NCBI RefSeq assembly: GCF_056746865.1
Contig: NZ_CM163382.1
Strand: one strand, 5' to 3'
Length of the DNA: 64,000 bases
This document shows, piece by piece, positions 40,001 through 43,000 of the stretch. The position numbers are program-made. The number at the start of each line of letters is the position of its first letter. Positions within the stretch are counted from its first letter, which is position 1.

Positions 40001-43000
40001 TTCTTTTTAATAATCAACCTGATTATCTTAATTTTTTAAGAGCAATGGATGGATTCGAAGTTAATGGATTACGATTATTTAGCCTCTCGATTCCAGAACC
40101 TTCAGTTAAAAACCTTTTTACCGTAAATGAATTTTATAGAAATAATGATGATTTCATAAACCCTGATCTACAAGAACGGTTAGTGATCGGGGATGATAGC
40201 ATTTCAATATTTACTTATGACATTAAAAGTAACTTTTTTGAAATTAGAGATAATATTGGCACCGAAAATATATTCAGTTCGTTTAGTGATTTCTCTTCAT
40301 TCTTAAACGAAATCATGGACAGTTGTTCATAATAATCAAAAGGTAACAAAAATCATTGTAAACCATGCCATCTTTTTAGAGATTACCAGCAGAAAATTCC
40401 TTGTTCGAAACTTAGCAATGCAAGCTATGGAAAAACTTACAACGGAACTACACTCCTTAAGTGAGATGGACCGAAGACATGTAATCTCTATTTTAGCCGA
40501 AATAGCTAATGGCTATGATGATTTTAGTGACATGTTGATTTAGTTAGAACTTCACCCGAATCATAAGATTCTGATATCTTAAATAAGAAAATCCCGTTCG
40601 ACGTTCTGAAAAAGAAATCACAAAATATTAGCAGATACTTATTTCGTGACTGTATATTATCCGATGAACTTTTTTCAAAACCAGCATTTAATAATATATT
40701 TGACGAAGATGAACGCGTCTTTTCTCAAAGTATAACGCAAGAATAATAATATAACGATCAACAATAATATTTATTATAATTATGATTACTTATCACGACG
40801 CATTCGCGAAAGCGAACCATTACCTTGATGATGCAGATCTCGCCGTCGTCATTACTCTACATGGACGCTTTAGCCAGGGCTGGTATTTCTGTTTCGAAGC
40901 ACGAGAATTTCTCGAAACTGGTGATGAGGCCGCGCGTTTATCCGGTAACGCACCTTTTATTATTGATAAAGACAGTGGTGAAATTCATTCCCTTGGAACG
41001 GCAAAGCCGCTGGAAGAATATCTACAGGATTATGAAATAAAAAAGGCTACCTTCGGCTTGCCCTGACAATACGGCCCTCTTCCCACGAAGAGGGCCGCTA
41101 ACCTTAATACCCCGCCGTTAAATCATCCACCGAGCGCGGATCGGATGCACCGTACAGCTCACCGTCCGGCCCAACCATAATGCTTTGTGTACTGCCCATC
41201 GCCTCTTTCAGCGCCACTTTCTGACCTTTTGCTTCCAGCAGCTTGAGCGTATCCGGGCTAAACCCTTTTTCGACACGCAGCTCGTCCGGCAACCATTGAT
41301 GGTGGAAACGCGGTGCATTGGTCGCTTCAGCGACATTCATGCCATAATCGATGCTATTCACCACCATTTGCAGCACGGTGGTAATAATCCGACTCCCGCC
41401 AGGGCTACCGGTAACCAGCCAGGTTTTACCGTCTTTCACCACAATGGTTGGTGACATCGACGACAGCGGGCGTTTGTTCGGCCCGACCGCGTTGGCATCA
41501 CCGCCCACCAGCCCGTAAACGTTCGGTACGCCCGGTTTGGCGGAGAAATCATCCATCTGGTTATTAAGCAGAATACCGCTCTCGCCCGCGACAATGCCCG
41601 TACCGAAGGTGGTGTTCAGCGTATAGGTCACCGCCACCGCGTTGCCGTCTTTATCCACCACTGAGTAATGGGTAGTTTGATTACTCTCATAAGGCGCAAG
41701 CTTGCCGGGGCGAATTTCGCTGGATGGCTTCGCTTTATTGATATCAATTTGATCGGCAATAGATTTGGCATAGGCTTTATTGGTCAGCGCCTGCCACGGG
41801 ACTTTCACAAAATCCGGATCGCCAAGATATTCCGAGCGGTCGGCGTAGGCGTATTTCTCCGCTTCTGCCATGATTTGCATCGCATCGGCGCTGCCAAAGC
41901 CGTATTTCTGCATATCGAAGTTTTCCAGGATATTGAGGATCTGCACGATATGAATCCCACCGGAAGATGGCGGTGGCATCGAGTAAACCTGATACCCGCG
42001 ATATTCGCCGCTAATCGGTGTACGTTCGACCGCTTTATACGCCGCTAAATCTTCTTTAGTGATCAAGCCACCGTTTTTCTGCATCTCCTGAGCGATCTGC
42101 TCCGCTATTGTGCCTTTGTAGAATTCGTCCGGGCCGTTTTCGGCAATCATCTCCAGGCTCTTTGCCAGGTTCGCCTGCACCAGCTTGTCGCCCTTTTTCA
42201 GCGGCGCGCCCTCTTTCCAGAAGATAGCCTTGCTGTTTTCGTGATTCGGCAACACTTCGCTACCGTAGGTTTTGAGATCGTCAGCCAGCGCGTCATTAAC
42301 GATAAAACCATCGCGTGCCAGTTTAAACGCCGGCTGCACCACTTTATTTAACGGCATGGTGCCGTACTTCTCCAGCGCCAGCGAGAAACCTGCGACCGTA
42401 CCTGGCGTACCGGAGGCCAGATGCGAAGTGAGTGATTTTTTGCTGTCCGGGTTGCCCTGGTCATCGAGGAACATATCGCGGGTCGCTTTGGCGGGTGCCA
42501 TTTCGCGGAAATCGATAGCGGTGGTATTGCCATTTTTCGAGCGGATCAGCATAAAACCACCACCGCCCAGATTCCCTGCCTGCGGATGCGTTACCGCCAG
42601 CGCGTAGCCCACAGCCACGGCGGCATCAACGGCATTCCCGCCCTCCTTGAGGATATCCACCCCCACCTGAGTGGCAGTAGCATCTACAGACGCCACCATC
42701 CCCTGTTTCGCGCGTACCGGATGGAAGACATCTTCCTCCACGCCATAAGAAACAGGTGGCGGAGGAGGCGCGGCGGAGGCGCTAAAACAACTTCCTGAGA
42801 GCAGAGCAGCAATGGCCACCCGGCGTAAAAACGTCGGTTTTATCATCGTTATTCTCCAGAGATTAAGGGGCAACCCCAGCTAAGCCTGGTATATAACTCT
42901 GAATTAATCATCGTTTTGCCGGGAAGCGAGTAAACTTAAAGGATATCTTCAGAGGAGGATACGCGATGAAACGACTTCTGATTCTTACGGCACTCCTGCC

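Follow-up and report, generated by a model that had tools for sequence, protein, structure and literature searches.

Probable relics of two unrelated small genes between yrhA and yrhB at a polymorphic Hcp-toxin locus of Escherichia coli

Introduction

Orphan immunity genes and toxin-tip modules lying downstream of polymorphic toxin genes have been described for contact-dependent inhibition (CDI) systems, for Rhs loci and in comparative-genomic surveys. In the class described as Hcp-ET, an Hcp protein carries a C-terminal toxin extension and its gene is followed by an immunity gene (PMC6730261); one member, Hcp-ET1, is an HNH-DNase with an immunity protein (Ma et al., 2017, as summarised in PMC6730261). 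Here, a locus of this kind was analyzed in a stretch of 64,000 nucleotides of an E. coli chromosome (contig NZ_CM163382.1 of assembly GCF_056746865.1; hereafter the window), with the focus on the 449 bp at 40333-40781 which separate yrhA, the small gene following the Hcp-HNH gene yhhZ, from yrhB. An earlier note on this DNA had read the gap as decayed cassette remnants consisting of a 41-codon open reading frame (ORF) and a startless frame of 59 codons. Our results make it highly probable that the 449 bp have no function and are the remains of two small genes unrelated to each other, here termed remnants A and B, left at a locus of repeated swaps of Hcp toxin tips and immunity genes.

The locus resembles the described orphan immunity modules in that the remnants lie downstream of an active-type pair, yhhZ-yrhA, in the same orientation and beside an intact orphan, yrhB, and in that their relatives reside in toxin/immunity arrays and sister taxa carry alternative toxin tips at the same locus. 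Unlike the orphan modules of CDI and Rhs loci, the remnants are decayed, the carrier is an Hcp fusion, no pre-toxin fragment is present, and an immunity role of A and B is read from their position. The arrangement typical of Hcp-ET is recognizable in yhhZ, which joins Hcp to an HNH domain and is followed by a small gene, as well as in the variation of the toxin tip (HNH, Gln_amidase or an unclassified domain); however, the finding reported here concerns downstream relics, and the effector of the window is itself broken by IS2. With YrhB, a member of the Imm35 family, the remnants share the array in which yrhB is the neighbouring orphan, an example of how an immunity gene can outlast its toxin, whereas yrhB is intact, shows more purifying constraint in pairwise comparisons (ratio of non-synonymous to synonymous polymorphism, pN/pS, 0.08-0.57) and is unrelated in sequence to either remnant. 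Finally, the ORF of the window is the same gene at the same position as yrhD of K-12, but the window allele ends at codon 39.

Results

Both frames were confirmed in the translation of the window: the ATG-initiated ORF at 40418-40543 encodes 41 amino acids (aa), MQAMEKLTTELHSLSEMDRRHVISILAEIANGYDDFSDMLI, and the frame without initiator is open over 40567-40746 and ends in ISRYLFRDCILSDELFSKPAFNNIFDEDERVFSQSITQE and a stop. The gap between yrhA and yrhB has a G+C content of 31% as compared to 50.7% for the whole window, and when its 449 bp were shuffled 2000 times with dinucleotides preserved, the longest open run averaged 57 codons. The longest run observed, 69 codons, was reached in 18% of the shuffles, the 59-codon run was unremarkable, and the observed open runs were equalled in 6-18% of the shuffles; frame length by itself is within chance at 31% G+C. 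It is homology, not length, that exceeds chance, and the frames are therefore regarded as real. Profile hidden Markov models (HMMs) were built from non-E. coli proteins only and searched against the complete six-frame translation of the 64-kb window, divided into 1865 stop-to-stop segments. The HMM of the first family, family A, matched a single segment on the plus strand (40307-40540, E 7e-14; runner-up E 8), and the HMM of family B, derived from two Citrobacter proteins, likewise matched a single plus-strand segment (40567-40743, E 3e-12; runner-up E 0.5). As shown by the alignments to these families, the region holds a copy of family A which is full-length but has no start, and one of family B which lacks both the start and the 3' part.

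The 41-codon ORF, which had previously been taken as anonymous, is, judged from its sequence, a nonsense-truncated allele of K-12 yrhD (40418-40543, plus strand), with TAT changed to TAG at 40541-40543. K-12-type YrhD consists of 51 aa, MEKLTTELHSLSEMDRRHVVSILAEIANGYDDFNDMLIYLEFYPNHKILIS, and corresponds to 40427-40582 of the window; the DNA of the window and K-12 is 95.8% identical over the 449 bp, at the same position between yrhA and yrhB, and the window peptide is identical to YrhD at 46 of 51 positions (90%), the stop being counted. In the window allele the TAG falls at codon 39 and the 51-codon ORF is not intact, and in strain 118UI, whose sequence does not differ from the window in this region, 40427-40540 is marked as a YrhD pseudogene. 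The 449 bp are present with 92-100% identity in 3804 of 5426 complete E. coli genomes, where they are annotated as "protein YrhD"; about 1600 of the 5426 genomes lack the yrhA-yrhB region. YrhD is entered in Swiss-Prot as P58037, 51 aa, function unknown, and a survey of 2012 called it a hypothetical protein of unknown function. In the searchable literature only that survey speaks of YrhD itself, the other mentions being an entry in a promoter table and primer names. The yrhD frame stays open for a further ~35 codons 5' of its ATG, into the 3' end of yrhA, and is homologous to family A there, which indicates that yrhD is the C-terminal piece of a startless family-A pseudogene, read after an internal Met, and not an independent gene.

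Remnant A, of ~87 codons (40319-40582, plus strand), is colinear with the whole of a family of ~80 aa, and its 5' end runs, in a different frame, over the final codons of yrhA. By tblastn it matched an 82-aa ORF of Leclercia with 35% identity over 66 aa (E 1e-7), and none of 5000 shuffles attained the observed score (z = 15.9). The HMM match spans positions 3-66 of 81, and in the multiple alignment of family A the remnant is colinear from the N-terminus to the stop. The stop of K-12 yrhD lies two residues past the family C-terminus and its Met is aligned with a conserved internal Met or Leu, yrhD covering only the last 60% of the ~80-residue family (residues ~35-82). Between the upstream stop (40304-40306) and 40418, frame A contains no ATG, GTG or TTG; at the position of the Leclercia GTG start, which is preceded by GGGAAG, remnant A has GTT. 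The AlphaFold2 model of a Pantoea member of the family consists of four helices (residues 3-20, 28-42, 47-61 and 67-78) with a predicted local distance difference test (pLDDT) score of 94, and according to this model a 51-aa YrhD would be without helix 1 and about half of helix 2.

Intact members of family A were found in Leclercia, Pantoea, Rahnella, Ralstonia and Streptomyces. By tblastn, copies, nearly all full-length, were detected in 52 plasmid or megaplasmid records, among them records from Pantoea, Rahnella, Ralstonia, Streptomyces and Rhizobium. Six proteobacterial loci were inspected, and in five of them (one from Leclercia, two from Pantoea and two from Ralstonia) the gene lies within a CdiA or haemagglutinin locus with orphan toxin-tip and immunity genes around it; in the sixth, from Rahnella, it comes after a pair of a deaminase toxin and DUF6911, and the part of this locus that was read contains no haemagglutinin gene. 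The Ralstonia gene (4989-5231 of stretch L022) overlaps an unclassified 116-aa ORF (4649-4999), and elsewhere family A follows other small genes. On the Leclercia island (stretch L015), a yrhA homolog (5001-5501) and the family-A gene (7633-7881) are 2.1 kb apart, the former downstream of a DUF8093 protein and the latter, on the opposite strand, where a CdiA orphan array ends. A plasmid of Pantoea sp. BRR-3P (stretch L028, ~3990-4231) carries an unannotated family-A copy with an internal stop downstream of a haemagglutinin-repeat gene, which is a second case of family A decaying in place.

Remnant B (40582-40749, plus strand) lies inside the startless frame 40567-40746 and corresponds to codons 1-54 of a Citrobacter gene of 85-86 aa, referred to as gene B. 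In tblastn it was aligned to residues 2-54 of the 85-aa Citrobacter protein with 45% identity over 53 aa (E 3e-10), again with none of 5000 shuffles at the observed score (z = 19.7), and in the DNA alignment AAT at 40582-40584 stands opposite the Citrobacter ATG. The last ~32 codons of Citrobacter gene B have no counterpart in E. coli, the HMM match being confined to positions 2-53 of 86. With regard to synteny, remnant B is located between yrhA and ggt as in C. youngae and directly 5' of yrhB as in Citrobacter sp. FP75. Family B is rare: in a scan that covered 100,044 species with one genome each, only two Citrobacter genomes and one E. coli-like contig were recovered, and a tblastn search of 7.3 Gb of plasmid-labelled records with Citrobacter gene B gave the E. 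coli frame as sole match (E 1e-6). In FP75, gene B starts 2 nt past the stop of an Hcp-toxin gene, whose Hcp-fused domain belongs to no recognised toxin family, and is followed by a yrhB homolog. The AlphaFold2 model of gene B had a pLDDT of 44 and was not used. Taken together, the tblastn and HMM searches found intact full-length relatives of both frames in the toxin/immunity arrays of other bacteria, and the syntenic comparison located intact gene B at the matching position in Citrobacter.

The toxin tip and the small genes downstream of it differ at this locus between E. coli, E. fergusonii and two Citrobacter species. Beside ggt, E. coli carries Hcp-HNH, yrhA, remnant A, remnant B and yrhB, while in E. 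fergusonii an Hcp-Gln_amidase fusion (PF15644), the N-terminal ~205 residues of which are near-identical to YhhZ, is followed by yrhB. The order in C. youngae is yhhY, a 294-aa gene, Hcp-HNH, a yrhA homolog (63-66% identity, depending on method), an 85-aa gene B and an 83/87-aa gene; Citrobacter sp. FP75 has Hcp with an unclassified C-terminal domain, an 86-aa gene B, a yrhB homolog (Imm35, 5e-19) and an 83-aa gene. Imm35 also follows Pectobacterium CdiA proteins ending in Gln_amidase. Because of these pairings in E. fergusonii and Pectobacterium, a Gln_amidase domain that is absent from E. coli would be the partner toxin of yrhB. The 3' end of the E. fergusonii toxin showed neither DNA nor protein similarity to 40333-40781, similarity starting at the yrhB ATG, and by megablast the 3' DNA of this toxin was absent from E. 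coli.

Both start codons are missing in all alleles examined, and the stop codons are lineage-specific. The TAG in A is found in the window, in 118UI and in the E686 type; in the B2 type (ST95-32, EcPF40) the yrhD start is ATA and A has an internal TAA; in the K-12 type a TAA is present in B (CAA to TAA at codon 14 counted from AAT); and in UTME-3 neither the A nor the B frame has a stop. Among 29 evenly spaced genomes, ~4 were of the TAG type, 22 had an intact 51-codon yrhD and 3 were of the B2 type. In six alleles, the polymorphic sites per site amounted to 0.100 for remnant A, 0.123 for remnant B, 0.045 for yrhA and 0.085 for yrhB, with synonymous to non-synonymous sites of 3:23, 5:15, 10:12 and 11:13, respectively; this gave 8:38 for A and B as compared to 21:25 for yrhA and yrhB (Fisher p = 0.007). 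Pairwise pN/pS was 0.16-0.46 for yrhA, 0.08-0.57 for yrhB, >2 for the yrhD part and 0.19-0.63 for remnant B, and between phylogroups yrhD showed 9-10 non-synonymous differences versus 1 synonymous difference. The substitution pattern in this small sample looks like that of unconstrained sequence.

Two further E. coli variants carry frame-fusing indels, namely a 5-nt deletion which fuses yrhD to remnant B (63 aa) and a frameshift which fuses yrhA to the family-A frame (246 aa); both are probably secondary mutations or sequencing errors. A word-indexed protein search with a fused 106-aa reconstruction returned E. coli variants only, including the frame fusion by the 5-nt deletion, and this deletion was judged to be a secondary mutation and not the ancestral state. 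In UTME-3, with both remnant frames free of stops, tssD (= yhhZ) and yrhB are both annotated as frameshifted, a pattern of decay at the yhhZ locus that extends beyond the remnants. A single frameshifted gene was considered as the origin of the two frames and dropped, as these match unrelated families (cross-comparison z = -1.3 and 2.6). A programmed frameshift was also dropped: no slippery heptamer was seen by eye in the overlap at 40564-40582, and the halves come from different families.

Pfam and NCBIfam contained nothing for either peptide or for the intact relatives, and an exhaustive HMMER search of 1.84 billion representative proteins returned E. coli fragments and two repeat proteins that were judged spurious. 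The relatives were found only via the neighbourhoods of yrhA and yrhB homologs, since short diverged relatives miss a library-wide E-value. At the DNA level, the Leclercia family-A gene had no match in E. coli genomes, and when Citrobacter gene-B DNA was compared with E. coli genomes the gene-B part of the query was unmatched.

The local order on the E. coli chromosome is yhhX, yhhY, yhhZ (tssD), yrhA, the 449-bp gap, yrhB and, on the opposite strand, ggt. The locus is a polymorphic Hcp-toxin locus, with Hcp and HNH in yhhZ, a YrhA-family protein encoded by yrhA and Imm35 encoded by yrhB. The 5' part of yhhZ (37327-38424, plus strand) encodes Hcp fused to a C-terminal HNH nuclease domain, that is, an effector of the Hcp-ET type, and is interrupted by an insertion sequence; a full-length yhhZ allele gave matches to Pfam T6SS_HCP (2e-11) and TIGR03344 (5e-34) and a weak match to HNH. 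The inserted element (38424-39753, plus strand), which we take to be IS2 from its end sequences and transposase proteins, encodes InsC (38470-38880) and InsD (38838-39743) and is flanked on both sides by the 5-bp duplication GTAGG. Its junctions were mapped against an uninterrupted yhhZ allele, the window being the same as strain 118UI up to 38424. The insertion splits yhhZ after ~codon 366, with the final 28 codons at 39754-39841; yhhZ of 118UI is intact. Downstream, yrhA (39838-40332, plus strand) is complete with 164 aa, belongs to the YrhA family (NCBIfam NF038335, 3e-37), aligns end to end with its homologs in Citrobacter, Leclercia and Dryocola, with the same stop position, and presumably confers immunity to the HNH domain of yhhZ. 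An AT-rich spacer for which no homology was found (40750-40781, plus strand) precedes yrhB (40782-41066, plus strand), an intact orphan of the Imm35 family (PF15567, 4e-22). In E. coli AR_0369, an IS1-associated deletion extends from the 3' end of yhhY into remnant B and leaves the last 125 bp of the region.

Discussion

The description of the gap as decayed cassette remnants holds in so far as older genes have decayed here, to judge by the loss of start codons, the lineage-specific stops and the intact relatives; it does not hold for a single cassette pair, as the two genes are unrelated. We propose that incoming toxin-tip/immunity cassettes would have recombined into the locus on the 5' side in several replacements, and that older immunity genes would thereby have been stranded downstream without their partner toxins. 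Of these, yrhB would have survived, and A and B would have lost their starts before the diversification of E. coli and drifted thereafter. The putative start of A is located 11 nt inside yrhA, and the stop of A shares one base with the former start of B; such tight junctions suggest, as a speculation, that yrhA, A and B once formed a compact operon. It is only from gene position that we infer an immunity function for intact A and B.

If the frames were no more than chance ORFs of the AT-rich intergenic DNA, this would account for lengths within the range of the shuffles and for the lack of a Pfam or NCBIfam match of either peptide. This explanation can scarcely be right and is refuted by the independent family matches (E 7e-14 and 3e-12) occurring nowhere else in the six-frame translation of the 64-kb window, by the shuffle tests and by the synteny of remnant B with an intact Citrobacter gene. 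Equally hard to credit is the suggestion of the earlier note that one or both fragments represent the displaced 3' end of an older toxin, the obvious candidate being a Gln_amidase domain. In its favour, the startless frame stops 35 nt before yrhB, where the cognate toxin would end, and in E. fergusonii and Pectobacterium the Gln_amidase domain ends exactly at the start of the yrhB gene. However, the region resembles neither the 3' end of the E. fergusonii toxin nor the Gln_amidase domain that this toxin carries, neither frame matches a Pfam toxin domain, and the frame adjoining yrhB is similar to the N-terminus of a small gene that encodes no toxin; it represents the 5' two-thirds of this gene, whose Citrobacter counterpart occupies the immunity position. 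A further explanation, which is compatible with a relic origin and rather improbable, is that yrhB now takes its promoter or 5' leader from the relic DNA, or that this DNA is a silencing region bound by H-NS. The AT-rich DNA lies directly 5' of intact yrhB, promoter-like hexamers occur at 40722-40750 and 40758-40786, and an RpoD site and an H-NS site are marked for this interval in a table from genomic SELEX (systematic evolution of ligands by exponential enrichment; PMC3946193). Against this, promoter-like sites are not enriched (7 as compared to 5.7 +/- 2.0 expected in shuffles), the region evolves faster than its flanks, and no Rfam family reached the threshold, the only hit being a sub-threshold small nucleolar RNA match inside yrhA that was judged spurious. 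The scan for promoters and terminators together likewise revealed no enrichment over shuffles. The sequence TAGAGA-18-TATATT at 40245-40274, in the 3' part of yrhA, is the RpoD site with H-NS mark listed 5' of K-12 yrhD (PMC3946193).

It could also be argued that yrhD is a genuine small-protein gene, the tail of some older gene having been co-opted as the 51-aa K-12 form, with a loss-of-function allele in the window. The annotation of yrhD in K-12 and by the Prokaryotic Genome Annotation Pipeline (PGAP) speaks for this, together with the conservation and the RNA polymerase site considered below. Nevertheless, we consider it very unlikely: the ORF comprises only residues ~35-82 of a four-helix family, without helix 1 and about half of helix 2, no Shine-Dalgarno-like sequence was seen by eye ahead of either ATG, pN/pS of yrhD exceeds 2, and the gene was inactivated independently at least twice, by the TAG of the window type and by start loss and TAA in the B2 type. 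Furthermore, the 51-aa form had no homolog outside E. coli among the 1.84 billion representative proteins.

Several observations weigh against the favoured reading of the 449 bp as non-functional relics of two small genes. The 51-codon yrhD is kept open in ~22 of the 29 evenly spaced E. coli genomes, 68 identical yrhD copies were counted among 186 genomes in an earlier survey (PMC3575317), and genomic SELEX placed an in vitro RNA polymerase site 5' of yrhD (PMC3946193), so that expression of a short peptide is possible in K-12-type strains. The pN/pS of remnant B between the window and K-12 is 0.19, even though the K-12 copy has a stop, and only six or seven alleles entered the tests for selection. 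In most loci family A does not adjoin a recognisable toxin, and on Streptomyces plasmids it is solitary; neither family A nor family B has a Pfam, NCBIfam or PDB relative. The order of the recombination events is, moreover, a reconstruction.

A more far-reaching interpretation, which we find plausible yet lean slightly against, is that families A and B constitute two previously undescribed families of immunity proteins and that yrhD is a family-A fossil. Family A may then be a widespread four-helix protein of ~80 residues from CdiA/haemagglutinin loci of Enterobacterales and Ralstonia, with relatives in Streptomyces, and family B may be an infrequent protein of Citrobacter and Escherichia whose partner is an unclassified Hcp-fused toxin domain. 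As a bolder variant, the 51-aa YrhD fragment may still be made and may have kept a partial function.

Relics of this sort are known, and the present case is useful mainly for annotation and leaves the general understanding of such systems unchanged. It would probably be right to mark the entry yrhD (P58037) as the tail of a pseudogene without a start codon, and to note the unannotated remnant B beside it. The comparison of four species is consistent with a stepwise replacement of toxin tips at yhhZ with stranded immunity genes, of which yrhB was retained and A and B decayed. Two small families and one Hcp-fused C-terminal domain, all without Pfam, NCBIfam or PDB relatives, are brought forward as possible toxin/immunity pairs.

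As for the FP75 locus, the C-terminal domain of its Hcp-ET protein comprises ~210 residues without Pfam or PDB relative and, with gene B 2 nt after it, is a candidate for a new toxin/immunity pair; the Hcp-ET gene (stretch L024, 4746-6261 with gene B; C-terminal domain at about 5450-5999, gene B at 6001-6261) contains a nonsense codon, CAA to TAA at 4989-4991. The 83/87-aa Citrobacter gene adjoining ggt (5807-6070 of stretch L012 and 6600-6851 of L024) has relatives of ~77% DNA identity in 849 E. coli genomes, where they are located at other loci, typically at two places per genome and sometimes beside tssD, and it may be another orphan gene of the immunity type.

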